Part shown: positions 9,193-63,154 of the stretch, one piece after another | Layout: each line of letters starts with the position of its first letter | Position numbering within the stretch: position 1 is the stretch's first letter | Assembly (NCBI GenBank): GCA_031553035.1 | Contig: JAVBLY010000008.1 | Coordinates: 134,858-198,857 of the forward strand | DNA length: 64,000 nucleotides | Direction: 5' to 3' | Source: Anaerovoracaceae bacterium | Lineage (GTDB): Bacteria; Bacillota; Clostridia; Peptostreptococcales; Anaerovoracaceae | Program-made: the position numbers and the translations under genes | The notes under the pieces: generated by a model | The model's input: the letters and a program-made list of their open reading frames with translations, nothing else | Database searches by the model: none | What the model was told of the DNA's origin: nothing

Positions 9193-9435
9193 TCATGATA
9201 AGAACTGCCTCTTTGGGGCAGTTCTTATTTGTGTAACTTTGAGTGGGTCGTTAGTCTTTCCCTTCATATATGATCTCAGGTCCTCAGCAGACATTACAGG
9301 ATCAAATTTATCCTTACAAAGATCAATGACAGTATGTTTCTCGCCATGGCTGTCTATTGATTGTATTACAGCATCTAAAATAGCATAATTGAAACTTCTA
9401 TCATATGGATGTGCATAAATCACAGTATTATTCAT
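9193..9435 (-). pseudogene. truncated flavodoxin-like-fold NAD(P)H oxidoreductase remnant
   Basis: MNNTVIYAHPYDRSFNYAILDAV...DKFDPVMSAEDL matches only the N-terminal ~70 aa of ~180-aa flavodoxin-fold quinone reductases. The reading frame then runs into the terminator hairpin. Confidence 0.5.
9200..9232 (+). terminator. hairpin after the small ORF
   Basis: AAGAACTGCC / GGCAGTTCTT 10-bp stem followed by ATTTGTG. Confidence 0.5.
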
Positions 9436-9943
9436 TGAGAGTGAATCTCCATATACATGCGCATGACTCATCTGTTATATCAGGATAGCAGCTGACACAT
9501 TCTGTTGTAATGCGGTCGTCGATAGTTTTGGCAAATCCTGAATACTCAACTGTACCTACAGGCTTGCACGGATGAAAATCCATACCTTTTCGCTCTCTCG
9601 CCTGCTGTGCTCTACATGTCACTATATTATATGTAAGGGTGTTGCCGTCTCTTGTGATGGATTCTTTGTTCAGGGGAGAATACATCCTGAAATTAAGCGC
9701 CCGTTCAAGACCTTCCAGACCTGAGTTATCCGGCAGATCGAGAAATCTTTTTATGCGGTTTGCTTCTATTACAGTATATTGTTCCCATATATTCATGTCA
9801 TGTTCCATGGCTTCGTCCATGCCGTGTTTATATTCGACGGACTGAAACCAGACACCATCCATAGCCAGCCAGTTTTTGGAAAACTCTTCAATTAGATCAA
9901 GCAGTTTTTCTTTAGGCAGATCTTCGATTTTGTTGTAAGTCAT
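9428..9943 (-). CDS. hypothetical cytosolic protein, DUF6125-like
   Basis: 171 aa. WLAMDGVWFQSVEYKHGMDEAME resembles DUF6125-family proteins from memory. Coding is clear; function is unknown. Confidence 0.5.
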   Translation of the reverse strand: MTYNKIEDLPKEKLLDLIEEFSKNWLAMDGVWFQSVEYKHGMDEAMEHDMNIWEQYTVIEANRIKRFLDLPDNSGLEGLERALNFRMYSPLNKESITRDGNTLTYNIVTCRAQQARERKGMDFHPCKPVGTVEYSGFAKTIDDRITTECVSCYPDITDESCACIWRFTLNE

Positions 9944-38503: not shown

Positions 38504-39400
38504 ATGGACGGGATAATAAATTTTCTCAAACCGGCGGGAATGACATCTCATGATGCAGTCAGTTTCTTTAGAAGGCTGACAGGCATCAGGAAAGTAGGCC
38601 ATACAGGGACATTGGATCCTATGGCGGCAGGAGTACTTCCCATTTGCATTGGAAAGGCCACCAGACTGATCGAATATCTGGAAGGGGACAAATCATACAG
38701 GGCTATAATGAGATTAGGTGTGAAAAGCGAGACAGGTGATATCTGGGGAAATGAACTTGAAACAGTAGAAGTCCCAAAAATTTTGGAACTTGAGGGCATA
38801 AATGAATGCCTGAAAAGTTTTGAAGGCCGGATAACGCAACGAGTGCCTGGATTTTCGGCTCAGAAGCACGATGGAAGAAAATTATATGAGTATGCAAGAG
38901 CGGGAGAAGAAATACCGGTAAAAGAAAAAAAAGTTGACATTAAAAATGTTACAGTAATTGCATTCGATGATAAAAAAAAAGAAGTGGCATTTGATATATT
39001 TTGTTCAAAAGGGACATATGTAAGAACCATCTGCACTGATGCAGGAGAAAAGCTGGGAACCGGCGGTGTAATGAACTTTCTTCTAAGGACAACGGCAGGA
39101 GGATTGGATGTAAAGGATTCGGTCACTGCCGAAGAACTGAAAAGCGAAATCGATAGCGCAGGAAATATAAACAAGTATCTTCGGGATCCAGGAGATCTGC
39201 TTAAAAATATGAACCGGATCGTTCTAAGCAAAGCAGATGCCAGACTGTTTGTAAATGGCATAGTCTTGGATAAAAGGACCGATGACGAAACATATTATGC
39301 AGTATTCACCGCATCAGAGAATAAGGGCGGAAAACTTATCGGCATAGGACGTGGGAGAAATAAAAAGCTAAAACCACATAAAGTGATTATCTCGGAGTGA
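38504..39400 (+). CDS. truB: tRNA pseudouridine(55) synthase
   Basis: GIINFLKPAGMTSHD, and GHTGTLDPMAAGVLPI with the catalytic Asp. Confidence 0.95.
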   Translation: MDGIINFLKPAGMTSHDAVSFFRRLTGIRKVGHTGTLDPMAAGVLPICIGKATRLIEYLEGDKSYRAIMRLGVKSETGDIWGNELETVEVPKILELEGINECLKSFEGRITQRVPGFSAQKHDGRKLYEYARAGEEIPVKEKKVDIKNVTVIAFDDKKKEVAFDIFCSKGTYVRTICTDAGEKLGTGGVMNFLLRTTAGGLDVKDSVTAEELKSEIDSAGNINKYLRDPGDLLKNMNRIVLSKADARLFVNGIVLDKRTDDETYYAVFTASENKGGKLIGIGRGRNKKLKPHKVIISE

Positions 39401-39403
39401 CAT

Positions 39404-40336
39404 ATGAAAGTATTCAGCAATATAAAAGAAATAAAAAATATAGATGGCACAGTTATAGCTCTGGGCAATTTCGATGGTGTCCATAAAGGACATATTGAGC
39501 TTATCAAAAGAACTGTTGAAGACGCTATAGATACAGATCTGAAAAGCGCAGTTTTCACTTTTTCCAATCATCCCAGGAATTTCCTGGCGGGTAAGAATGT
39601 CATAAAAAATATCATAGCCTCAGAAGATAAAATGGCAATCATTGAGAGTCTGGGAGTAGACTATATTTTCAATATTCCATTCGATGAAAATATTCATGTC
39701 ATGAAACCTGTAGATTTTATCGATGATCTGGTGCTTGAAAAAATGAACAGCAAGGTAATTTACTGCGGTTTCAACTACCATTACGGAAAGGATGCCGGAG
39801 GAAGTACTGAAACACTCATACAGACAGCAGAGGCTGAAGGATTTGAGGTAAATGTGCTTGAGCCTTTTATTATCAATGACAATCTTGTGAGCAGCACACT
39901 TATCAGATCGCTCATAGCAGAGGGCAAGGTCAGAGAATGTACGGATTATCTGGGCAGGCATTATTTTACCAGAGGCACAGTACAGGTCGGTAATCAGATT
40001 GGAAGAACCATTGGATTTCCAACATCTAATATCACTATCGATGACAGCATGGTTTGGCCGTCACACGGTGTTTACATAACCAACTGTTATTACGAGGACA
40101 CAAGGTATCATGCCGTGACCAATGTAGGCATAAGGCCGACCATAGGGGACAACCGAAAAGTGGTAGAAACCCATATGTTCGATTTTGACCAAACCATATA
40201 TGAAAAACAGATCAAAGTAGAATTTCTTGAAAAGATCAGGGATGAACGTAAATTCAAAAGTAAAGAAGAATTAAAAGAACGAATCGGACTGGATAAAAAG
40301 ATTGCCGAGGATTATCACAGGAAACACAATGAGTAG
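39404..40336 (+). CDS. ribF: bifunctional riboflavin kinase / FAD synthetase
   Basis: ALGNFDGVHKGH, and GFPTSNI...HGVY...TNVGIRPT. Confidence 0.95.
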   Translation: MKVFSNIKEIKNIDGTVIALGNFDGVHKGHIELIKRTVEDAIDTDLKSAVFTFSNHPRNFLAGKNVIKNIIASEDKMAIIESLGVDYIFNIPFDENIHVMKPVDFIDDLVLEKMNSKVIYCGFNYHYGKDAGGSTETLIQTAEAEGFEVNVLEPFIINDNLVSSTLIRSLIAEGKVRECTDYLGRHYFTRGTVQVGNQIGRTIGFPTSNITIDDSMVWPSHGVYITNCYYEDTRYHAVTNVGIRPTIGDNRKVVETHMFDFDQTIYEKQIKVEFLEKIRDERKFKSKEELKERIGLDKKIAEDYHRKHNE

Positions 40337-50375: not shown

Positions 50376-50768
50376 TTATCGGGTTCTCTGATTTTCCTTA
50401 GGGGTGACACACACTCCCTTGGCTCTGCAAACAACGATAGGTTCGTCAAGAACATCTGCAGCACTCGGACTGATATCCGGTCTTACAGCTATTACTTTTC
50501 TTGCCTCAAACTCCATTATTCTGGAAGTCTCACCGTGCTTAGTGATCTCTCCGTATGCTTCGATAAAGTCACCTCCGTAAATAGGCGCCAGGAATTCCAC
50601 ATCGTTGTATTTAAGGAAAAGTCCTTCATCGCCGTCGATTTGAATAAGCAGCTCAGTAGCAACATCTCCGAAAAGGTGCACTGCATGGGCACCGTCTACA
50701 AGATTTCCGCCGTAATGAATATCCTTATGTGAAATCCTCAATCTTATTGTGCTAGTGTACTTGGTCAT
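50376..50768 (-). CDS. kal: 3-aminobutyryl-CoA ammonia-lyase (hotdog fold)
   Basis: 130 aa from the ATG at 50768 (GGGAGGGAAAAATAT upstream). [34 protein letters not shown]...[17 protein letters not shown] matches my recollection of Kal. Lies next to the lysine-fermentation operon. The longer track ORF (to 51005) is an artefact. Confidence 0.75.
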
Positions 50769-50836
50769 ATATTTTTCCCTCCTGTCAATTATACAATTAT
50801 AATACGTAGTCTTATGAAAAGACAAACTAATATATT

Positions 50837-50852
50837 TGCAAAAAACATGCCA
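50837..50852 (-). promoter_or_regulatory. sigma-54 (-24/-12) promoter of kal
   Basis: The minus strand reads TGGCAT-GTTTT-TTGCA. The -12 element ends 69 nt before the kal ATG. Confidence 0.7.
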
Positions 50853-50880
50853 CTGGGTTATCATGTAAATAGCACAATCT

Positions 50881-50896
50881 GAACCGAAAACGGTTC
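50881..50896. promoter_or_regulatory. inverted repeat GAACC-N6-GGTTC, candidate activator-binding site
   Basis: GAACCGAAAACGGTTC followed by GCGCTA. It has the same core as the palindrome at 53076..53107. Confidence 0.5.
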
Positions 50897-50943
50897 GCGC
50901 TAAGTTGGTCAAATTCAATAAATGTGGACAAAAGGGGATAAAT

Positions 50944-53075: not shown

Positions 53076-53107
53076 ATAATAGCGAACCAATATTGGTTCG
53101 CTATTAT
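53076..53107. promoter_or_regulatory. 32-bp perfect palindrome, candidate upstream activating sequence
   Basis: ATAATAGCGAACCAATATTGGTTCGCTATTAT. Its centre lies about 104 bp upstream of the -24 GG. Confidence 0.6.
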
Positions 53108-53115
53108 GCTGTTAT

Positions 53116-53140
53116 GCACCAAAATCGGTTCGAATAGCGA
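53116..53140. promoter_or_regulatory. second, imperfect activator-site candidate
   Basis: GCACC-AAAATC-GGTTCGAATAGCGA shares the GGTTCG and ATAGCGA words with the palindrome. Confidence 0.4.
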
Positions 53141-53193
53141 TGATCCAATTTTATTAGGCTGTAAATCATCATATTTGCGGTGATATTCATGCT

Positions 53194-53209
53194 TGGCACG
53201 CCTATTGCT
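53194..53209 (+). promoter_or_regulatory. sigma-54 (-24/-12) promoter of the kdd-kamA...kce operon
   Basis: TGGCAC-GCCTA-TTGCT is an exact match to TGGCAC-N5-TTGCW. The -12 element ends 68 nt before the kdd ATG. Confidence 0.85.
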
Positions 53210-53276
53210 ATTATTAGTATGTGAACAAATTAATATGTTTTATGTTTATGAAATAAAAATATATGGAGGGAACAAA

Positions 53277-54308
53277 ATGAAAAAAGGAAATCCGTTCGGA
53301 ACACACAGAGTTATTTCACCAAAAGGGGTTCTGCCTCAGCCGGCAGATGTCATCGACAACACAATGGAGATTTTTGATAACGAAGTACTCATTGATGTCC
53401 AGACACTTAATGTGGACTCTGCCAGTTTCACACAGATCGAAAAGCAGGCAGAAGGTAATATTGAAGAAATCAAAAAGATCATGAAGGGGATCGTCGCTAA
53501 GGCCGGTAAACATAAGAATCCTGTAACAGGTTCAGGTGGAATGCTTATTGGGACAGTCAGGGAAATTGGGCCGGCATATGAAGGTCTGCTAAAAGTAGGG
53601 GACAAAATAGCAACTCTGGTTTCACTTTCACTGACACCCCTCGTTATCGAAGAGATAATCGAAATAAGACCTGACATCGACCAGGTGGATATCAAAGGGC
53701 AGGCAATACTTTTCCAGAGCGGCATCTATGCAGTACTTCCCGACGATATGCCCGAAACTCTTGCATTATCAGTACTTGACGTTGCAGGTGCTCCGGCGCA
53801 GGCAGCAAGAATGGTGCAGGCCGGAGATACGGTTGTGGTAATCGGCGGCGGCGGAAAATCAGGACTTCTCTGTTTGTTTGAAGCAAAGAAAAGAGCCGGA
53901 GTTACGGGCAAGGTCATCTGCGTCGGAGGTTCGGACAAGTCGACAAACAGAGCCAAGAAACTGGGCCTGGCTGATGAATACTTTGCAATGGATGCGACAG
54001 ATGCAGTAGGCATGTATGACAAGATCATGGAACTTACAGACGGACAGCTTGCTGATCTGGTAATCAACTGTGTAAACATAGAGAACACTGAAATGGCTTC
54101 GATTCTGGCATGCAAGGAAAGAGGGATGGTTTACTTCTTCTCAATGGCAACAAGCTTCACAAAAGCAGCCCTCGGCGCGGAAGGCGTAGGAAAAGATGTT
54201 ACTATGATCGTCGGAAACGGTTATGCCAAGGATCATGCCGCTATTGCACTTCAGGTCCTTAGAGATTCACCAGAGATTCGCGAACTATTTGAAGAAATGT
54301 ACGCATGA
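53277..54308 (+). CDS. kdd: L-erythro-3,5-diaminohexanoate dehydrogenase
   Basis: 343 aa. Rossmann loop VVVIGGGGKSG. The size and position beside kamA/kamDE/kce fit Kdd. GGAGGG RBS before the ATG at 53277. Confidence 0.8.
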   Translation: MKKGNPFGTHRVISPKGVLPQPADVIDNTMEIFDNEVLIDVQTLNVDSASFTQIEKQAEGNIEEIKKIMKGIVAKAGKHKNPVTGSGGMLIGTVREIGPAYEGLLKVGDKIATLVSLSLTPLVIEEIIEIRPDIDQVDIKGQAILFQSGIYAVLPDDMPETLALSVLDVAGAPAQAARMVQAGDTVVVIGGGGKSGLLCLFEAKKRAGVTGKVICVGGSDKSTNRAKKLGLADEYFAMDATDAVGMYDKIMELTDGQLADLVINCVNIENTEMASILACKERGMVYFFSMATSFTKAALGAEGVGKDVTMIVGNGYAKDHAAIALQVLRDSPEIRELFEEMYA

Positions 54309-54377: not shown

Positions 54378-55646
54378 ATGATGGAAAAATATACTTATAG
54401 AAACTGGAAAGACATTCCGCTATACAAAGATGTTACTGAAGAACAGTGGAACGACTGGCACTGGCAGATCAAGAACAGACTGACCACCGTAGAAGAGATC
54501 GGACAAGTCATTAAGCTTACCGAAAAGGACGAAGAGGATATTACTAAGGTCATGGAAGGATTCCGAGTAGGGATCACACCTTACTATGCATCTCTCATGG
54601 ATCCCGACGATCTTAAAGATCCCGTAAGACTTCAGGCGGTACCGACTTTGGCCGAGTCTAAGAGAGGATCGGCAGACATGGAAGATCCGCTTCATGAGGA
54701 TGAAGACTCACCGGCTCCCGGCCTTACTCACAGATATCCCGACAGAGTACTTTTCTTGATCACAGACCAGTGCTCAATGTACTGCAGGCACTGTACAAGG
54801 AGAAGACTTGCAGGCGAAAAAGACGGAGCAAGATCAAGAGCAGATATAGATGCATGTATTGCATATGTAAAGAAAACACCTCAGGTAAGAGACGTCCTGC
54901 TTTCCGGCGGTGACTGCCTTTGCGTATCAGATGATACATTAGAATACATAATCAGCGAACTTAGAAAGATCGAACATGTCCAGATCGTAAGACTGGGGTC
55001 AAGAACACCTGTTGTTATGCCTCAGAGAATCACAGACAACCTCGTTAACATGCTGAAAAAATATCATCCAATATGGCTCAATACTCATTTCAACCATCCA
55101 AAGGAAATGACTCCCGAAGCAATCGCGGCCTGTGCAAAGCTGGCCGATGCAGGAATACCGCTGGGCAACCAATCTGTACTTTTAAGAGGCGTCAACGACA
55201 CTCCTGATGTAATGAGGGAATTAGTTCATGTTCTTGTCGCAAACAGGGTAAGACCGTATTACATTTACCAGTGTGATCTGAGTCTTGGAATAGAACACTT
55301 CAGAACAAAAGTATCAAAGGGAATAGAGCTTATCGAATGTTTGAGAGGACATACTTCAGGATTCTGCGTTCCAACTTTTGTGGTAGACGCTCCGGGCGGC
55401 GGCGGGAAGACCCCGGTTATGCCACAGTACGTAATTTCACAGACACCGGATAAGGTGATCCTGAGAAACTACGAAGGAGTCATCACAACCTATACAGAAC
55501 CTAAGATCAATGAACTGGATCCTGAATATGATGAGACAATCGGTACCACAGCTTATGAGTATGACGGCGTAGCATCTCTTGCCACCGGTAAGCAGATGGC
55601 TCTGGAGCCTGGCAATCTGGAAAGACATAATCGAAACAAAAAATAG
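54378..55646 (+). CDS. kamA: L-lysine 2,3-aminomutase (radical SAM, PLP)
   Basis: CSMYCRHCTRR (CxxxCxxC), and RYPDRVLFLITDQC and GGDCL-type blocks. Confidence 0.95.
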   Translation: MMEKYTYRNWKDIPLYKDVTEEQWNDWHWQIKNRLTTVEEIGQVIKLTEKDEEDITKVMEGFRVGITPYYASLMDPDDLKDPVRLQAVPTLAESKRGSADMEDPLHEDEDSPAPGLTHRYPDRVLFLITDQCSMYCRHCTRRRLAGEKDGARSRADIDACIAYVKKTPQVRDVLLSGGDCLCVSDDTLEYIISELRKIEHVQIVRLGSRTPVVMPQRITDNLVNMLKKYHPIWLNTHFNHPKEMTPEAIAACAKLADAGIPLGNQSVLLRGVNDTPDVMRELVHVLVANRVRPYYIYQCDLSLGIEHFRTKVSKGIELIECLRGHTSGFCVPTFVVDAPGGGGKTPVMPQYVISQTPDKVILRNYEGVITTYTEPKINELDPEYDETIGTTAYEYDGVASLATGKQMALEPGNLERHNRNKK

Positions 55647-55675: not shown

Positions 55676-56710
55676 ATGAAACTGTATGATGAAGTACTAA
55701 ATAAATATGATGTTCTTTCTCTCGTAGGCATGTCCAAGAATGCGGGCAAGACAACCGCCCTCAATTATCTCATCGAGGAAGCCTACGACGAGGATGTCAT
55801 CCCCGGAATCACCTCCACCGGAAGAGACGGTGAAGGAACGGATCTGGTTACAGGAACTGAGAAGCCGAAGGTCTATGTGTATGAAGACAGTATCGTCACC
55901 ATACCCATTGATCTCTTCGACATAGCTGATGCCGGTCTTGAGATCCTCAGCAGAACTAATTATCATTCGACATTCGGAAGCATACTCATGTGCAGGGTAC
56001 TGGATGAAGGATTTGTTCAGGTGGCAGGTCCCACTTCAACAGCTGACCAGAGAAAGCTCAGCAGGGAAATGCTGGAACTGGGTGCAGACATCATACTTAT
56101 CGACGGTGCGATAGACAGGCGTTCAATAGCTTCACCGTTTGCTTCAGATGCCATAATCCTGTCAACCGGAGCAGTACTGTCAAGGGATATGGATATAGTG
56201 GTAATGGATACCATGCATGTGGTCGAACTTTATACTCTGCCTGAATTTGGGTCAGAAGGTAAAGAAAAACAGTATGCAGAAAAGCTTAATGCACCGGGAT
56301 ACTGTGAAAGTACAGTGATCATGAGAAAAGATAAACTGGAAATACAAAGTTGTCAAACCGGTCTGATGGCAGGCAACAAACTGGACAGGCAGATCGATGA
56401 TGAAACGGAATTCCTGTATTTACCGGGAGCTCTTACTACTTCGACTTTGGAATACATTATGCCTGAAAAACTCAGGCAGATCACCTTTGTGGTCAAGGAC
56501 CCCACCAAGATATTCATTGACAGGGTGTCGTACCGAAGGCTTAAGAAAAAAGGTCTGAAAATCAAGGTTCTTAAGGGCATAAAGGTAGCTGCCATAACAG
56601 TTAATCCGTATTCTCCCGAAGGATATTCTTTCGGAAACAATATGCTTCTTGAAGCAATGCGGGATGCTGCAGGCGATCTTCCGGTAATAGATGTAAAAAA
56701 ACCTGATTAA
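55676..56710 (+). CDS. P-loop NTPase-like protein of unknown function, embedded in the lysine operon
   Basis: N-terminal Walker A LVGMSKNAGKTT. 344 aa. I recognise no other motif. Confidence 0.55.
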   Translation: MKLYDEVLNKYDVLSLVGMSKNAGKTTALNYLIEEAYDEDVIPGITSTGRDGEGTDLVTGTEKPKVYVYEDSIVTIPIDLFDIADAGLEILSRTNYHSTFGSILMCRVLDEGFVQVAGPTSTADQRKLSREMLELGADIILIDGAIDRRSIASPFASDAIILSTGAVLSRDMDIVVMDTMHVVELYTLPEFGSEGKEKQYAEKLNAPGYCESTVIMRKDKLEIQSCQTGLMAGNKLDRQIDDETEFLYLPGALTTSTLEYIMPEKLRQITFVVKDPTKIFIDRVSYRRLKKKGLKIKVLKGIKVAAITVNPYSPEGYSFGNNMLLEAMRDAAGDLPVIDVKKPD

Positions 56711-56722
56711 GAGGAGATAGAT

Positions 56723-58372
56723 GTGCTTAAAACTAAGCTTTCAAATGAAAAAACCAAGGTTGAACTGGGACTGAGATACGTCATCGGACGGATCGACGTT
56801 CTTACTCCTTTTGGGAAAAAAATCATAAAAAAGCTGAAGCCGAATTTTCCGGGCAGTGAAGGACGCCTTGTAAAAGAACTGGATAAGCTTGAGGTTATCA
56901 GAAAGATAATAGACGATTATGAAGATACTTTAAGCAAGATCTCCGGTATATTCATGCAGATCAAGGACAACAGCTTCACCCTGGAAAGAAGTGCTTTTGA
57001 CGTACTTACCGTTGTCGAGCTGTTTGAAATAAAGACATTTTTGCTCCAGCTTGAGACTTTGAGCGGTCTTTATGCTAAACTGGGCAGCGATTTTCCTGAT
57101 GAATATACACCGGCGGATACCAAGGAACTTCTGGATCTTATGGATCCGGAAGACAGCAGACTGGCTACATTCTATATCTATGACACATTTTCCCTGAAGC
57201 TTGCAGAGTACCGTAAGGAAAAAAGGCAGCTTGAAAAGAACCTTAAAAGGGAACAGAAGCTGATCAAGGACAGAATTTATGAAGAGCACGGACTTCAACT
57301 CAGTCCGAAATTCGACATAATAATATCCAGATCCGATGCCGAATCCCTGGAAAAGATAAAAAGCATCCCTGAACTTGTAATGGGTACCGAAGATTATATA
57401 TCGGTCATATTTGCTCTTGAGAAGACTGAAGAACAGCTCAAGATCAAGGAACAGATCGAAGATCTCAACACGAAAATTGATGAGGAAGAATATATAGTAA
57501 GAAAAATGCTCACCGATAAAGTGTTTGAGAACAGAAAGACCATAACCAGAAACACCAAAAAAATAGGCGATCTGGACTTTGTAATCGCCAAAGCCAAATT
57601 TGCCAGAAAGCACAACTGTATAAAACCGAATATCGTGCTGAACCACATTATAGATATAAAAGAGGGCAGATACCTGCCTGTGGAAGACGCTCTTGAAGAA
57701 AAGGGCAAGCATTACCTCCCGATCACAATAGGATTGAATGACGGTGTAACATGCATAACCGGTGCGAACATGGGGGGGAAAACCGTTTCCATGAAGCTGG
57801 TGGGACTGCATGCTATGCTGTCACAATACGGATTTTTTGTACCTTGTAAAGAATGCACGGTAGGTCTGTCCTCTTTTATTCATATACTTGTAGGTGATAG
57901 TCAGGACATACAGAGAGGGCTTTCAAGCTTCGGCTCCGAAATGGAAGAACTGGCCCAGATCCTGGATAACGGCAAGGATAGATCTATGATACTGATCGAC
58001 GAGATAGCAAGTTCCACAAATCCGTTCGAAGGTTTTGCCCTGACTAAATCCCTTGTGGAATACCTGAGGGAAAGGCCGTATATCAGCCTCATCACCACTC
58101 ATTATGAGAATGTAAGCACTTCGGAGAATATAAAAAGTCTTCAGGTGAGAGGTCTTGCGGATGCCGATTTTGAGAAGCTTTCTAAAGAGCTGACCGGCGC
58201 AAAAGACAATGAGCGAATTGACGTAATAGCAAATTACATGGACTATAATCTTGTAGATTCAAACGAGGGCAAAAATGTGCCCAAGGAAGCACTTAATATA
58301 GCATATGTGCTTGGAGTGAAGAAAGAAATAATAGACAATGCCAAGCAGATGATAACAAGTGAATTATTTTAA
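56723..58372 (+). CDS. MutS-domain-V ATPase-like protein (no mismatch-binding or Smr domain)
   Basis: GTG start after GAGGAG. Shows ITGANMGGKTVSMK (Walker A), SSFGSEMEE, ILIDEIASSTNPFEG (Walker B), and LITTHY. Confidence 0.75.
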   Translation: MLKTKLSNEKTKVELGLRYVIGRIDVLTPFGKKIIKKLKPNFPGSEGRLVKELDKLEVIRKIIDDYEDTLSKISGIFMQIKDNSFTLERSAFDVLTVVELFEIKTFLLQLETLSGLYAKLGSDFPDEYTPADTKELLDLMDPEDSRLATFYIYDTFSLKLAEYRKEKRQLEKNLKREQKLIKDRIYEEHGLQLSPKFDIIISRSDAESLEKIKSIPELVMGTEDYISVIFALEKTEEQLKIKEQIEDLNTKIDEEEYIVRKMLTDKVFENRKTITRNTKKIGDLDFVIAKAKFARKHNCIKPNIVLNHIIDIKEGRYLPVEDALEEKGKHYLPITIGLNDGVTCITGANMGGKTVSMKLVGLHAMLSQYGFFVPCKECTVGLSSFIHILVGDSQDIQRGLSSFGSEMEELAQILDNGKDRSMILIDEIASSTNPFEGFALTKSLVEYLRERPYISLITTHYENVSTSENIKSLQVRGLADADFEKLSKELTGAKDNERIDVIANYMDYNLVDSNEGKNVPKEALNIAYVLGVKKEIIDNAKQMITSELF

Positions 58373-58387
58373 GAAAGGATGCAAACT

Positions 58388-59941
58388 ATGAGCAAATTGA
58401 ATCTTGATCCGAAAATCATTGACGGTGCCCGTAGCTGCGCGGCAAGAATAGCCGAAGATGTTCAGCAGTTTATCGAAAAGCATACTACGGTAAGCACGGA
58501 AAGAACTGTTGCAAGACTTCTCGGTATCGACGGGACAGATGATGTGGGGACACCTCTTCCGAATATTCTGATCGAACAGATAAAGGATGCCGGCGGCCTG
58601 GCAAGAGGCTGTGCATATTGGATCGGCAATGCAATGATCGAAACCGGGCTGAGCCCACAGGAAATAGCACAGAAAGTAAGCGACGGAGAAATAGAGATCA
58701 CTAAGCTTGCTGCATCTTCTGCTGAAGACACGGAGGCAAAAATATATCCGGCAGTGGAAGCAGCACTTGCAAAAATAAAAGAACAGAGAGAATTCAGAGA
58801 AGATACAATAGATAGAATAGGTGAGGGACGACAGCCTTACCTGTATGTAATAGTTGCCACCGGCAACATTTATGAAGACGTTGTTCAGGCACAGGCCGCC
58901 GTAAGGCAGGGTGCCGACGTAGTAGCTGTCATAAGGACCACTGCTCAAAGCCTGCTGGATTATGTTCCATACGGACCTACCACAGAAGGCTTCGGCGGAA
59001 CATATGCCACTCAGGAGAATTTCAAGATCATGAGGGAAGCTCTGGACGAAGTAGGTGAAGAAGTGGGCAGATACATAAGACTCTGTAACTATTCATCAGG
59101 CATGTGCATGGCGGAGATCGCCGCTATGGGAGCCCTTGAGAGACTTGATATGATGCTCAATGATGCTCTTTACGGCATACTCTTTAGAGATATCAATATG
59201 CAGAGAACTCTCGTCGACCAGTATTTCTCAAGAGTCATAATCGGGTATTCAGGAATCACCTTCAATTCAGGTGAGGATAATTATCTTACAACATCTGATG
59301 CATTTGAAGAAGCACACACAGTACTGGCTTCACAGTTTTTGAATGAGCAATTCGCGGTGCTCGCAAATATTCCCGAAGACCAGATGGGCCTCGGACACGC
59401 ATTCGAGATGGATCCGGCTCTTGAAGACGGATTCCTTTATGAGGTTTCACAGGCAATAATGGCAAGGGAAATTTTCCCTGAAGCTTCGCTTAAATACATG
59501 CCGCCCACAAAGTTCATGACAGGTAATATTTTTAAGGGACAGATTCAGGATGCTCTGTTCAACCTGGTTTCGGTCTGGTCAGGACAAAGTATTCAGCTTC
59601 TTGGTATGCTTACGGAAGCCATACATACACCTTTCATGCAGGACAGATATCTTTCACTTGAAAATGCCGGCTATATTTTCAACAACGCGAGACATCTCGG
59701 CGACGAGATCGAATTCAAGAAAGACGGTATCATTCAGAATAGAGCCGTATCCGTACTTGATGAAGCAGACAAGATGCTCCATCAGATCGAAAAGGATACG
59801 CTGTTTACAACTATAGAACAGGGTAAGTTCGGCGGTGTCAAAAGGGCACGTGACGGCGGAAAAGGACTGGATGGTGTCATAGTCAAAGATGACAGATATT
59901 TCAATCCGTTTATTTCTGCAATGATGGGAGGTGACAAATAA
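58388..59941 (+). CDS. kamD: lysine 5,6-aminomutase alpha subunit
   Basis: LNLDPKIIDGARSCAARIAEDVQQFI...TVSTERTVARLLGIDG. About 517 aa, immediately followed by the B12-binding subunit. Confidence 0.9.
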   Translation: MSKLNLDPKIIDGARSCAARIAEDVQQFIEKHTTVSTERTVARLLGIDGTDDVGTPLPNILIEQIKDAGGLARGCAYWIGNAMIETGLSPQEIAQKVSDGEIEITKLAASSAEDTEAKIYPAVEAALAKIKEQREFREDTIDRIGEGRQPYLYVIVATGNIYEDVVQAQAAVRQGADVVAVIRTTAQSLLDYVPYGPTTEGFGGTYATQENFKIMREALDEVGEEVGRYIRLCNYSSGMCMAEIAAMGALERLDMMLNDALYGILFRDINMQRTLVDQYFSRVIIGYSGITFNSGEDNYLTTSDAFEEAHTVLASQFLNEQFAVLANIPEDQMGLGHAFEMDPALEDGFLYEVSQAIMAREIFPEASLKYMPPTKFMTGNIFKGQIQDALFNLVSVWSGQSIQLLGMLTEAIHTPFMQDRYLSLENAGYIFNNARHLGDEIEFKKDGIIQNRAVSVLDEADKMLHQIEKDTLFTTIEQGKFGGVKRARDGGKGLDGVIVKDDRYFNPFISAMMGGDK

Positions 59942-60714
59942 TGACTGCTGAAAAAAAGATAGCTACATCAAATGTAGATTTAAAGAAAGTAAAGCCATAC
60001 GGCGATACAATGAACGACGGCAAAACACAGCTCAGTTTCACCCTTCCTGTTCCTTATGGTCCAGAGGCCGATGAAGCGGCAAAACTTTTATGCAAAAAAA
60101 TGGGAATGGACGAACCGAACGTGGTTTATTCTAAAGATATGGGCGGCGGATTCACATTTTTCGTCGTATACGGAAGCTGTCAGCATACTATCGACTACAC
60201 AACAATAAAAGTAGCCAAGGTGGATGTTGAAATCATGGACAGGGAACAGTGCCAGGAATTCATCGAAGAGAACATCAAGCGTGAAGTCGTTATCGTAGGG
60301 GCTTCATCAGGTACTGATGCCCACACGGTAGGCATCGATGCGATAATGAACATGAAGGGCTTTCACGGTCACTTCGGCCTGGAAAGATTCAAGGGTATCG
60401 ATGCTCTGAATATGGGTTCTCAGGTTCCAAATGAAGAACTGGTCGCAAAGGCAATCGAAATGAATGGGGACGCAATAATCGTTTCACAAACTGTAACACA
60501 GAAAAATGTACACATACAGAACTTGACCAATCTTGTTGAGCTTGTGGAAGCGGAAGGCATAAGAGACAGAATAGTCCTCTGCTGCGGGGGACCCAGGATA
60601 TCACACGAACTGGCTCAGGAACTTGGCTATGATGCAGGGTTCGGACCACATACATATGCCGAACATGTAGCTTCGTTCGTACTGACGGAAATAATCAGAA
60701 GAAAGCTTGTTTAA
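59941..60714 (+). CDS. kamE: lysine 5,6-aminomutase beta subunit (cobalamin/PLP-binding)
   Basis: Start overlaps the kamD stop (TAATG). B12 motif SSGTDAHTVG (DxHxxG). Confidence 0.9.
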   Translation: MTAEKKIATSNVDLKKVKPYGDTMNDGKTQLSFTLPVPYGPEADEAAKLLCKKMGMDEPNVVYSKDMGGGFTFFVVYGSCQHTIDYTTIKVAKVDVEIMDREQCQEFIEENIKREVVIVGASSGTDAHTVGIDAIMNMKGFHGHFGLERFKGIDALNMGSQVPNEELVAKAIEMNGDAIIVSQTVTQKNVHIQNLTNLVELVEAEGIRDRIVLCCGGPRISHELAQELGYDAGFGPHTYAEHVASFVLTEIIRRKLV

Positions 60715-60739
60715 AAGGGCAGGTAAGGAGGAAGATGAA

Positions 60740-61420
60740 TTGATAGATAAAATCAAAACTGCCGAGGAGGCGATCGCAAATATCGAAGACGGCGCAAGCA
60801 TAATGATAGGAGGCTTCATGGCCTGCGGTTCGCCGGAGATCCTCATCGATGCACTGGTCAAAAAGAATGTAAAGAATCTGACCATAATTTGCAATGATGC
60901 GGGAGTGCCGGGAAGAGGAACAGGCAAACTTCTGTCCAACGGACAAATCAAAAAGCTCATTGCATCCCATGTGGGGCTGAATCCTGAGGTCGCAGAAAGG
61001 ATGAACACCGACGATCCTGAGAGGAAGCTGGAATGTCAGTTAATTCCTCAGGGCACACTTGCTGAAAGGATAAGAGCAGGCGGAAGCGGACTTGGCGGTT
61101 TTCTCACTCCGACAGGGGTAGGGACTATCGTCGCTGAAGGCAAGCAGGTAATAAACGTGGGCGGCAGGGATTATCTCCTTGAAGAGCCGCTTAAAGCCGA
61201 CTTTGCTTTTATCAGAGGATCAGTTACGGATAAATTCGGAAATACAACATATAACGGTACTACCAGAACATTCAATCCAATGATGGCGGCAGCTGCTGAT
61301 GAAGTCATCGTCGGTACATGTGAGGTCGTGGAAATGGGCGACATAGATCCCAATAATATCGTGACATCAGGAATATTCGTTGACAGCATAGTGGGAGGTG
61401 AGAAACAATGGCAGATATAA
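60740..61420 (+). CDS. atoD: 3-oxoacid CoA-transferase subunit A (acetoacetate:butyrate/acetate CoA-transferase)
   Basis: IMIGGFMACGSPEILIDAL and PQGTLAERIRAGGSGLGGFLTPTGVGT. Likely TTG start at 60740, seven nt after AAGGAGGA. Confidence 0.85.
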   Translation: MIDKIKTAEEAIANIEDGASIMIGGFMACGSPEILIDALVKKNVKNLTIICNDAGVPGRGTGKLLSNGQIKKLIASHVGLNPEVAERMNTDDPERKLECQLIPQGTLAERIRAGGSGLGGFLTPTGVGTIVAEGKQVINVGGRDYLLEEPLKADFAFIRGSVTDKFGNTTYNGTTRTFNPMMAAAADEVIVGTCEVVEMGDIDPNNIVTSGIFVDSIVGGEKQWQI

Positions 61421-62058
61421 AAGAAAGGATCGCCAAGAGAGTTGCATTAGAGCTTCATGACGGCGATGTTGTGAATCTTGGCATTGGTCTTCCCACAATG
61501 GTTGCAAATCATCTTCCCGAAGATGTACATATAATTCTCCAGTCCGAGAACGGCATAATGGGCATGGGCCCGGCACCTGAGGCAGGCAAAGAAGACGTTG
61601 ACATCGTCAATGCAGGAGCGCAATATGTGACCATCAACAAAGGTGCGATGTTCTTTGACAGCGCAACTTCATTTGGCATAATAAGAGGCGGTCATGTGGA
61701 TGCTACTATTCTGGGTTCCCTCGAAGTCGATGAGCACGGAAATCTTTCTAACTGGATCGTACCGGGAAAGATGGTTCCCGGTATGGGCGGAGCAATGGAT
61801 CTTGTGGTAGGGGCCAAAAAGGTCATAATAGCGATGCAGCATACTCAGAAGGGCAAACACAAAATATTAAAGGAATGTACACTTCCATATACCGCAGTAG
61901 GTGTTGTGGATATGATAGTCACTGAAATGGGCGTTATGGAAGTTACAGACAAGGGGATCGTCCTCACCGAGATCCACCCTGATTTCACAATAGAAGATGT
62001 CCAGGCGGCAACTGACTGCAAACTGATAATAGCCGAAGATCTGAAGGAAATGAAATAA
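61408..62058 (+). CDS. atoA: 3-oxoacid CoA-transferase subunit B
   Basis: VNLGIGLPT, SENGIMGMGP (catalytic Glu context), and GMGGAMDLV. Confidence 0.85.
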   Translation: MADIKERIAKRVALELHDGDVVNLGIGLPTMVANHLPEDVHIILQSENGIMGMGPAPEAGKEDVDIVNAGAQYVTINKGAMFFDSATSFGIIRGGHVDATILGSLEVDEHGNLSNWIVPGKMVPGMGGAMDLVVGAKKVIIAMQHTQKGKHKILKECTLPYTAVGVVDMIVTEMGVMEVTDKGIVLTEIHPDFTIEDVQAATDCKLIIAEDLKEMK

Positions 62059-62074
62059 AGGATGGGGTACTAAA

Positions 62075-62905
62075 ATGGAAAAACTAATTATCAGCGCCTG
62101 CATATGCGGCGCAGAGGTCACTAAAGAGAATAATCCCGCTGTTCCGTATACAGTTGAGGAAATAGTAAGAGAAGCCAAGTCCGCTTATGATGCAGGGGCG
62201 GCAGTCATACATCTCCATGTGAGAGAGGATGACGGTACTCCCACCCAAAGTAAGGACAGATTCCAGGAATGTATGGACGCGATCTACAAAGTATGTCCTG
62301 ACGTTATCATACAGCCTTCAACAGGCGGAGCCGTCGGCATGACCGATCTTGAGAGACTTCAGTCCACCGAAGTTACTCCCACACCTGAATTTGCAACTCT
62401 CGACTGCGGTACCGTAAATTTCGGCGGTGATGAGATCTTTGTCAACACCGACAATACCATATTCAATTTTGCAAAGATCATGCAGGAGAGAGGCATCAAG
62501 CCGGAGCTGGAAGTCTTTGATAAGGGAATGGTTGATATAGCTCTCAAGGTCGATAAAAAAGGTCTGCTTGAGCATCCGCTTCACTTCGACTTCGTCCTTG
62601 GAATCCAGATGACAGCAACTGTCAGAGATCTTGCTTTTATGGTGGGGAGTATTCCTCCCGGATCGACCTGGACAGTAGCAGGAATCGGCAAAAGTGAGTT
62701 TGATATGGCGGCGGCCGGTATAATAATGGGCGGACACGTCAGAGTCGGATTTGAAGACAATCTTTATATAGAAAAGGGTGTTCTTGCCAAGAGCAATGGC
62801 GAACTTGTTGCGAAAGTTGTTAAGATAGCAGAAGTATTAAACAGAGAAATCGCCAGCCCGGATGAGGCAAGAAAGATAATGAACATGCCGATCCAGAAAA
62901 AATAG
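62075..62905 (+). CDS. kce: 3-keto-5-aminohexanoate cleavage enzyme (BKACE/DUF849)
   Basis: KLIISACICGAEVTKENNPAVPYTVEEIVREAKSAYDAGAAVIHLHVREDDGTPT...IIQPSTGG. Confidence 0.9.
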   Translation: MEKLIISACICGAEVTKENNPAVPYTVEEIVREAKSAYDAGAAVIHLHVREDDGTPTQSKDRFQECMDAIYKVCPDVIIQPSTGGAVGMTDLERLQSTEVTPTPEFATLDCGTVNFGGDEIFVNTDNTIFNFAKIMQERGIKPELEVFDKGMVDIALKVDKKGLLEHPLHFDFVLGIQMTATVRDLAFMVGSIPPGSTWTVAGIGKSEFDMAAAGIIMGGHVRVGFEDNLYIEKGVLAKSNGELVAKVVKIAEVLNREIASPDEARKIMNMPIQKK

Positions 62906-62944
62906 TCTAAAGAATTTAAAATAAAAAATAGATTGAAATGCGAA

Positions 62945-62984
62945 AATACATAGGGTATTTGGTGGAATGCCCTGTGTATTTTTC
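62945..62984 (+). terminator. intrinsic terminator ending the lysine operon
   Basis: AATACATAGGGTA ... TGCCCTGTGTATT (13-bp stem, two G-U pairs) followed by TTTTTC. Confidence 0.7.
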
Positions 62985-63154
62985 ATTGACAGAATGTGAC
63001 TGACTGTTGAATTCCCAAAGTCATTTTTAGCAACTGTTCATGTCCTCCTTCATATTCGACGGATAATGAAATAAAAACAACTTCTTTTAAAAAAAATGAT
63101 GAACATCATGCTAAATAAAATTTTTTGGGTATAATGCGATTGTGGGAGAAAATT

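Follow-up and report, generated by a model that had tools for sequence, protein, structure and literature searches.

How is the fermentation of lysine to butyrate switched on in Clostridia, and which DNA in front of the pathway genes carries the switch? Gut and sediment anaerobes have few routes from protein to butyrate, and one of these is the fermentation of lysine to butyrate, acetate, and ammonia. In the literature that could be searched, we found no account of how this fermentation is controlled at the level of transcription in Clostridia. We addressed the question in a 64,000-nt stretch of the genome of an Anaerovoracaceae bacterium (GCA_031553035.1, contig JAVBLY010000008.1, positions 134,858 to 198,857 of the forward strand), called the window below. 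The element under study lies between a regulator gene and kdd, the first gene of a lysine fermentation operon, and consists of a sigma-54-type -24/-12 promoter (Pkdd) preceded by a 32-bp palindrome and a degenerate second site. We read it as a region that controls a lysine fermentation regulon dependent on sigma-54 and driven by the neighboring activator, and we put the probability of this reading at about 85%. Control of the lysine-to-butyrate genes by a sigma-54 on-switch is of an ordinary type and is previously undescribed.

Results

With the N-terminal domain of the regulator as the query, 203 homologues were retrieved, nearly all of about 685 amino acids and of the same architecture; in the protein collection search, the best full-length homologue was 54% identical to the regulator of the window. 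Scanning one genome per species gave 292 related stretches in species-level reference genomes, from which 80 loci were kept, mostly from Anaerovoracaceae and Family XIII Clostridia. Most of these 80 loci share the gene order kal(-), regulator, kdd-kamA-kamB-kamC, and kal(-) next to regulator(+) was found in 68, including the window. We scored 70 downstream spacers (regulator to kdd or kamA) and 68 upstream spacers (kal to regulator), the window being counted in the downstream set as well.

Pkdd, TGGCACGCCTATTGCT, matches TGGCAC-N5-TTGCW exactly and is alone in doing so on either strand of the 64 kb, compared to a mean of 0.08 matches in shuffled windows, of which 8 of 100 held at least one. 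Its GG and GC dinucleotides are exactly 10 nt apart, and 67 nt separate the motif from the kdd ATG at 53277. When one mismatch was allowed, four matches were obtained in the window. Two of these (39227 to 39242 on the minus strand and 39445 to 39460 on the plus strand) lie inside truB-like and ribF-like coding sequences, named by eye, and were taken as chance. A -24/-12 element is present in 62 of the 70 downstream spacers. In the alignment of these 62 promoters, T-TGGCAY and TTGCT hold the information, which reaches 2 bits at the TGGCA and TTGC positions and is near zero elsewhere except for an A/T-rich stretch directly 3' of the -12 element; no -10 hexamer is conserved at the sigma-70 spacing of 16 to 18 nt. 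Judged from the position of the element, kdd transcription would start near 53220 and give a leader of about 57 nt. For a leader RNA element or riboswitch, there was no Rfam match at the gathering score in the whole window and none at an E value of ≤1 between 50300 and 54500.

The palindrome ATAATAGCGAACCAATATTGGTTCGCTATTAT begins 39 nt past the stop codon of the regulator gene and is built of two 16-nt arms with 100% complementarity and no spacer. Its core, GCGAACCAATATTGGTTCGC, is the first of two boxes attributed here to the activator (box 1). The window holds two exact copies of GAACC-N6-GGTTC, one inside the palindrome and the other at 50881 to 50896, on the far side of the regulator gene. 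The second site, GCACCAAAATCGGTTCGAATAGCGA (53116 to 53140), contains box 2 with its one-mismatch core at 53116 to 53131, which begins 32 bp after box 1 and has its center 71 bp from the -24 GG of Pkdd, while the center of box 1 lies 103 to 104 bp from it. The first-pass annotation of this DNA had described an exact sigma-54 consensus, a perfect 32-bp palindrome with the core GAACC-N6-GGTTC about 104 bp from the GG, and a degenerate second site. These features were all recovered as placed, with one core mismatch in the second site and with the distance measured from the palindrome center.

At least one box lies upstream of kdd or kamA in 67 of the 70 spacers, and at least two boxes were found in 41. 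Their consensus, T-GAAC(C/A)-(A/T-rich N6)-GGTTC-(G/A), spans about 18 bp, and adjacent boxes start 30 to 33 bp apart in 34 pairs across the related loci (32 bp in the window). The motif is enriched in this neighborhood: the sequence on either side of the regulator gene makes up 7.4% of the 858 kb of the loci and holds 115 of the 163 exact matches (p 1e-90). The distances from box center to GG cluster near 50, 61, 72, 82, 92, 103, 114, 126, and 137 bp, with a best period of 10.9 bp (R of 0.68, or 0.56 when each value is counted once). The two boxes of the window, at 103 and 71 bp, fall on this ladder of about 10.9 bp. Judging by these distances, insertions and deletions between lineages evidently came in whole helical turns, which is the pattern expected for an activator that acts by looping.

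The regulator itself has the domains of a sigma-54 activator. It matches Pfam Sigma54_activat (PF00158; 1.2e-66), AAA_lid_14 (PF25601; 1.3e-19), and HTH_50 (PF18024; 5.1e-12), the last being a helix-turn-helix (HTH) domain of the TyrR type; the GAFTGA loop is intact, and the Walker A and B motifs are present. Homologues carry the Joint Genome Institute label "TyrR family helix-turn-helix protein." GAFTGA is absent in six of the related loci (L041, L048, and the clade L060/L064/L076/L080), and in four of the six the Walker B aspartate is replaced by asparagine. The GAFTGA-less loci stand at three separate positions in a neighbor-joining tree, indicating that GAFTGA was lost three times. In all six, the boxes are kept, but neither kdd nor kal is preceded by a -24/-12 element, and sigma-70-like promoters are found instead. 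Among the GAFTGA-positive loci, only L040 and L050 lack the element before kdd (60 with and 2 without it, versus 0 with and 6 without it in the GAFTGA-less loci; Fisher's exact test, p 2.6e-7). This covariation is the strongest available nonexperimental evidence that the -24/-12 elements in the other genomes, that of the window included, are used through this regulator. Together with the domains of the regulator, the conserved element, the boxes, and their phasing, it bears out the earlier proposal of upstream activator sites facing a promoter, with the activator encoded immediately upstream. The GAFTGA-less relatives look like a TyrR-like conversion.

Two further features were seen in the spacers of relatives. 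Many loci of the Emergencia/Ihubacter type have two tandem kdd paralogues, and the spacer between them (e.g., L033 at 9276 to 9494, L036, L068, and L077) contains one or two extra boxes and then a conserved GTTATTTTTTAAATAATC, followed by a sigma-70-like TAGACA-N17-TATAAT without a -24/-12 element. A GAFTGA-positive regulator may thus also act at sigma-70 promoters. In another set of loci (L029, L033, L044, L059, L062, L068, L069, and similar ones), a conserved terminator-like hairpin, ACCCATTGGAAACAGTGGGTTTTT, is located between the boxes and the -24 element and ends a few bases before TTGGCAC, inside the DNA loop. This hairpin presumably terminates the regulator transcript.

Predicted divergent kal promoter

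The remaining lysine fermentation enzyme is encoded by kal, a predicted second target gene that diverges from the regulator gene. A sigma-54-type element (Pkal) ends 68 nt before the kal ATG, and an equivalent element is present in 57 of the 68 kal-regulator spacers. One box is found here (box K). Its center and the GG of Pkal are 38 bp apart, and the distance is 37 to 39 bp in all 56 loci with a scored box. On the regulator strand, TTGCAA-N16-18-TATCAT occurs in 48 of 56 loci, and the copy in the window, with N17, would serve as the promoter of the regulator gene. Its -35 hexamer, TTGCAA, coincides with the -12 element of Pkal, and box K covers about +9 to +28 of the predicted sigma-70 transcript. 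Since box K is just downstream of the regulator promoter, it probably lowers regulator expression, and we infer that the regulator acts as its own repressor, with the two polymerases in competition. The compact divergent layout (50836 to 50898) is kept in about 50 related loci. The kal promoter, the sigma-70 promoter that overlaps it, and the Kdd-like sensor described below are additions to the first-pass annotation.

The loci with the closest relatives of the regulator, from metagenome-assembled genomes of termite guts (L010, L039, and L045), have the regulator, then a box, and then TGGCAT-N5-TTGCG/T, and in L039 and L045 this promoter leads straight into kamA. Their upstream neighbor is not kal and appears by eye to be pseudouridine-synthase-like. 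These differing neighbors indicate that the gene content of the regulon varies.

Weighing of the evidence

Several observations weigh against a sigma-54 regulon driven by this activator. The loci are not phylogenetically independent, which inflates both the counts and the periodicity statistic; R was reached by 0 of 5,000 random sets, but the resulting p-value is inexact because the loci are related and tandem boxes were counted twice. A weak sigma-70-like match, TTGGCA-16-TAGTAT (53193 to 53220, 9 of 12 positions), overlaps Pkdd, and another sigma-70-like sequence inside the operon (61655 to 61682) lies about 390 nt before the kce ATG. In some GAFTGA-keeping relatives, the boxes precede sigma-70-like promoters; boxes alone are therefore no proof of sigma-54 activation. 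The RpoN box and GAFTGA were sought in all six frames of the 64-kb window, and only this regulator was found, through its GAFTGA, and no rpoN. Finally, the 38-bp spacing at Pkal is far below the 100 to 250 bp typical for clostridial enhancers (PMC6615313).

A first alternative concerns the palindrome only and would leave the enhancer in place: the core may be an activator box while its extension acts as a partial terminator or insulator against read-through into the kdd operon from the constitutive promoter of the regulator gene. The earlier proposal of the palindrome as an activator site is supported for the central 18 to 20 bp or so, which form the box conserved in 67 of the 70 loci, but not for the outer arms, ATAATAGC and GCTATTAT, which are not conserved and are specific to this lineage. 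These flanks lie outside the conserved motif and yet are perfectly paired. As RNA, the palindrome forms a 14-bp hairpin, and the surrounding 108 nt fold with -30.9 kcal/mol (z -4.6). Between about a tenth and a fifth of the related loci have similarly extended stems, some with T runs; in the close relatives L017 and L039, a T run stands directly 3' of the first box. A fully paired core with at least three extra pairs is found in only 9 of 67 loci. At the palindrome of the window the U tract is weak, and the extension may have arisen neutrally through a recent duplication or inversion. Weighing both sides, we hold such a double function to be a fair question with odds somewhat below even. A terminator function is thus a possible second role of the palindrome and no rival to its role as an enhancer.

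A second alternative is that transcription of kdd begins at a sigma-70 (SigA) promoter which overlaps a -24/-12 look-alike, the regulator being a TyrR-like sigma-70 activator or repressor. It could draw on the 9-of-12 match overlapping Pkdd, on the TyrR type of the HTH domain, and on the boxes that precede sigma-70-like promoters in GAFTGA-less relatives and before second kdd copies. However, the regulator of the window has kept its GAFTGA and Walker motifs, the -24/-12 match is exact, and the 62 aligned promoters conserve GG-N10-GC. Moreover, sigma-70-like matches in the window show no excess (32 matches versus 28.3 expected from shuffles). We rejected the sigma-70 match as the true kdd promoter because a conserved -10 element is missing at the appropriate spacing, and we consider this alternative very improbable.

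The palindrome could also be solely the intrinsic terminator of the regulator gene, with no enhancer role. Its location shortly past the stop codon, its stable hairpin, the 9 loci with additional pairing, and the T runs in L017 and L039 fit such a function, and the separate hairpin between boxes and -24 element in other lineages suggests a need for insulation. However, the tail of the palindrome is GCUGUUAUG, without a clean U tract; the absence of a U tract had been remarked on before and was seen again here. The 3' arm ends in UAUUAU, and the consensus terminator scan made no call at this strong stem. What is kept in 67 of 70 loci, across variable spacers, is the half-site sequence GAAC(C/A)/GGTTC rather than pairing, and in most loci the stem is not extended. 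A copy of this box also precedes kal, in a spacer between divergent genes with no transcript to terminate; box 2 is nonpalindromic and no hairpin is possible there; and the boxes keep to one helical phase relative to the -24 element. We rejected the terminator-only explanation on the grounds that sequence rather than pairing is conserved, and we would give it scarcely any credence.

That the promoter match and the palindrome are functionless chance features is next to impossible: a single exact promoter match does appear in 8 of 100 shuffles, but a perfect 32-bp palindrome is not expected in 64 kb, and the comparative data contradict chance, with both features conserved in sequence as well as in position in dozens of species whose regulators are only 50 to 60% identical to that of the window.

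Probable sensor domain of the regulator

The N-terminal part of the activator, approximately 340 amino acids long, shares 28% identity with the Kdd encoded next to it (E value of 2e-37). It matches the solved 3,5-diaminohexanoate dehydrogenase (3,5-DAHDH; PDB 7DL3) over the whole length (E value of 8e-25). An AlphaFold model of the domain has a predicted local distance difference test score of 80 and a predicted template modeling score of 0.81. With this model as the Foldseek query, the top 7 PDB matches were all 3,5-DAHDH (E value of 5e-24, template modeling score up to 0.78), followed by generic medium-chain dehydrogenases (E value of 1e-10, score of about 0.5). The domain scores 125 bits against NCBIfam Lys_ferment_KDD (NF052381), below the cutoff of 200 for a Kdd enzyme. 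None of the described sensor classes (PAS, GAF, receiver, V4R, ACT, PrpR_N, and others) was among the Pfam matches of the regulator. The precomputed Pfam annotation of homologues places accession PF26370 over the sensor region; the domain is therefore already recognized by curators, even if the regulon is undescribed.

When 78 regulators were compared with 96 Kdd enzymes from the same loci, 44 of the 164 columns invariant in the enzymes were kept in the regulators. The GGGGKSG dinucleotide-binding loop is replaced in all 78, by G-N-N-L-L-x-N in the family and by GDHFISN in the window, while at the position of E310 in the solved Kdd the regulators invariably have glutamate. E310 governs the substrate scope of Kdd (PMC9902596, a review). 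The sensor is probably a noncatalytic Kdd paralogue that would read a pathway intermediate. An inducer among the pathway amines is likely, as this Kdd copy has no NAD(P)-binding loop and has kept the glutamate of substrate scope; naming 3,5-diaminohexanoate or a closely related pathway amine is a guess.

Predicted operon and its terminator-like hairpin

The features of the locus are listed in Table 1. From kdd to kce, the largest intergenic gap is the 69 nt between kdd and kamA. The terminator scan gave no terminator-like site on the plus strand between kdd and the hairpin with a U run that follows kce, which makes a single nine-gene transcript of about 9.7 kb plausible. The gene calls thus agree with the earlier statement that no gap in the operon exceeds 69 nt, and the terminator that had been placed near 62945 corresponds to this hairpin.

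Inside the gene for CoA-transferase subunit B, the sequence TTGACA-16-CATAAT (plus strand), with TG before the second hexamer, matches the sigma-70 consensus at 11 of 12 positions. It may be an internal kce promoter or a chance match.

Table 1. Coordinates of genes and control elements of the lysine fermentation locus, numbered from the first nucleotide of the window
Feature	Position	Strand	Remarks
kal, 3-aminobutyryl-CoA ammonia-lyase	50376-50768	-	NCBIfam Lys_ferment_KAL, 181 bits (cutoff 160)
Predicted regulator promoter, sigma-70-like, TTGCAA-N17-TATCAT	50836-50864	+	9/12 consensus positions
Pkal, sigma-54-type -24/-12 element, TGGCATGTTTTTTGCA	50837-50852	-	One mismatch to consensus
Activator box K, CTGAACCGAAAACGGTTCGC	50879-50898		Exact GAACC-N6-GGTTC
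Sigma-54 enhancer-binding protein, 697 amino acids	50944-53037	+	Pseudo-Kdd sensor, AAA+ with GAFTGA, TyrR-type HTH
Perfect palindrome	53076-53107		Activator box 1 plus lineage-specific stem extension
Activator box 1 core	53082-53101		Holds exact GAACC-N6-GGTTC
Activator box 2, GCACCAAAATCGGTTCGAA	53116-53134		Core GCACC-N6-GGTTC, one mismatch
Pkdd, sigma-54 -24/-12 element	53194-53209	+	Only exact TGGCAC-N5-TTGCW match in window
kdd, L-erythro-3,5-diaminohexanoate dehydrogenase	53277-54308	+	NCBIfam Lys_ferment_KDD, 263.7 bits (cutoff 200)
kamA, lysine 2,3-aminomutase	54378-55646	+	Pfam LAM_C, Radical_SAM
kamB, lysine 5,6-aminomutase reactivase subunit	55676-56710	+	NCBIfam reactivase_KamB, 361.6 bits
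kamC, lysine 5,6-aminomutase reactivase subunit	56723-58372	+	NCBIfam ATPase_KamC, 560.1 bits
kamD, lysine 5,6-aminomutase alpha	58379-59941	+	With kamE: Pfam Lys-AminoMut_A (8.7e-265), OAM_dimer, B12-binding
kamE, lysine 5,6-aminomutase beta	59941-60714	+	Pfam matches given with kamD
CoA-transferase subunit A	60707-61420	+	Pfam CoA_trans
CoA-transferase subunit B	61408-62058	+	Pfam CoA_trans
kce, 3-keto-5-aminohexanoate cleavage enzyme	62075-62905	+	Pfam BKACE, 1.1e-100
Intrinsic terminator-like hairpin with U run, 3' of kce	62942-62985	+	-26.6 kcal/mol, z -6.6

Discussion

The sequence features were established directly, and so were their conservation and phasing and the joint loss of the -24/-12 elements and GAFTGA. 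From these we infer a mechanism that extends to binding, looping, transcription start, autoregulation, and induction. The C-terminal HTH domain of the regulator would bind the 18-bp boxes T-GAAC(C/A)-N6-GGTTC-R. At kdd, two boxes would lie on one face of the helix, box 2 being weaker and 32 bp nearer to the promoter, and an activator oligomer on these boxes would loop to the RNA polymerase-sigma-54 in a closed complex on Pkdd. ATP hydrolysis and contact by the GAFTGA loop would then open Pkdd, and the product would be a transcript of about 9.7 kb that carries kdd, kamA to kamE, the two CoA-transferase genes, and kce and ends at the hairpin 3' of kce. The same protein would drive Pkal from one box 38 bp upstream of the GG, and box K, near the sigma-70-type promoter of the regulator, would lower the expression of the regulator itself. 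The Kdd-like N-terminal domain would sense 3,5-diaminohexanoate or a related pathway amine.

A more far-reaching scheme, which we regard as doubtful, would join these elements into a feed-forward switch embedded in the pathway. A dead Kdd copy would sense 3,5-diaminohexanoate or beta-lysine, not lysine, and activate the downstream enzymes through sigma-54; the operators would have been rewired at least three times to sigma-70 promoters, and the first operator of the window would have been extended into a terminating hairpin. If this were true, the family would be a natural series from an enhancer-binding protein to a TyrR-like classical regulator.

The arrangement of enhancer and promoter is itself textbook; the pathway and the regulator family are not yet described in this connection. 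The points of greater interest are the pseudo-enzyme sensor, the compact divergent promoter with an enhancer at 38 bp, and the repeated rewiring from sigma-54 to sigma-70. The GAFTGA-less lineages constitute a clean comparative system for the conversion of a sigma-54 into a sigma-70 regulator. The locus additionally offers a widely conserved control logic, an operator motif for regulon prediction, and a candidate ligand class for the sensor.

Comparison with known systems

Control of a sigma-54-dependent kamA promoter by the PAS-domain regulator KamR is established in Bacillus thuringiensis HD73 (PMC4428206, citing Zhang et al. 2014). The two systems agree in an activator gene that adjoins its target in the same direction, in TTGGCAT-N5-TTGCT before lysine 2,3-aminomutase, and in the sigma-54 control of lysine catabolism in a Firmicute. 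In contrast, KamR carries a PAS sensor (PMC4428206), whereas the regulator of the window is Kdd-like and has no PAS match. The Bacillus kamA locus is without kdd, kce, kal, and kamDE and is also under the control of SigK during sporulation. The likeness to KamR, which was compared by its description, is one of function and not of family. In a 2025 survey, lysine 2,3-aminomutase was among the genes with predicted sigma-54 promoters in Bacilli (PMC12316311).

For clostridial sigma-54 regulons, Nie et al. (2019) distinguished 39 regulator groups and listed their sensor domain types (PMC6615313). Their article and its supplement contain no mention of lysine, lysine fermentation, or aminomutases and no Kdd-like domain (PMC6615313), and in the literature searched, no paper was found that connects sigma-54 with 3,5-diaminohexanoate dehydrogenase or with kdd and kce. 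The PrdR/OrdR-type regulons resemble the system of the window in having a one-component activator beside the target operon, multiple inverted-repeat upstream sites, and a promoter of the TTGGCAT-N5-TTGCT type (PMC6615313). The box of the window, GAACC-N6-GGTTC, differs from TGT-N10-12-ACA, which is common to 15 of the groups (PMC6615313). PrdR is also the best NCBIfam match over the AAA+/HTH part of the regulator, at 320 bits, far below the cutoff of 795.

TyrR of Escherichia coli binds an 18-bp palindrome with 6-bp arms and a 6-bp spacer and senses through ACT and PAS domains; its AAA+ core makes no working contact with sigma-54, and the protein is active at sigma-70 promoters. The regulator of the window has the same type of C-terminal HTH (HTH_50) and the same operator layout, and the six GAFTGA-less relatives likewise appear to act at sigma-70 promoters. 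Unlike TyrR, however, the protein of the window keeps GAFTGA, faces true -24/-12 promoters, has a Kdd paralogue as its sensor, and has a different half-site sequence.

XylR of Pseudomonas putida, with Pr/Ps, is a self-regulating activator located between two target promoters. SoxR of B. thuringiensis is likewise placed between two target promoters and regulates itself (PMC4428206). The locus of the window is similar in that the regulator gene lies between two sigma-54 promoters and an enhancer box overlaps the sigma-70 promoter region of the regulator. It differs in that one hexamer, TTGCAA, is both the -12 element of Pkal and the -35 element of the regulator promoter, in that the box is 37 to 39 bp from the GG, and in that autoregulation is here a prediction.

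MocR/GabR regulators are aminotransferase-like and use a disabled enzyme fold as a sensor. Fe-hydrogenase-like sensor domains occur in clostridial enhancer-binding proteins (PMC6615313). The regulator of the window shares with both a metabolic-enzyme paralogue that is fused to a DNA-binding output and presumably reads a metabolite. It differs in that the enzyme is here the medium-chain-dehydrogenase-like Kdd, which belongs to the regulated pathway itself, and in that the output is an AAA+ sigma-54 activator.

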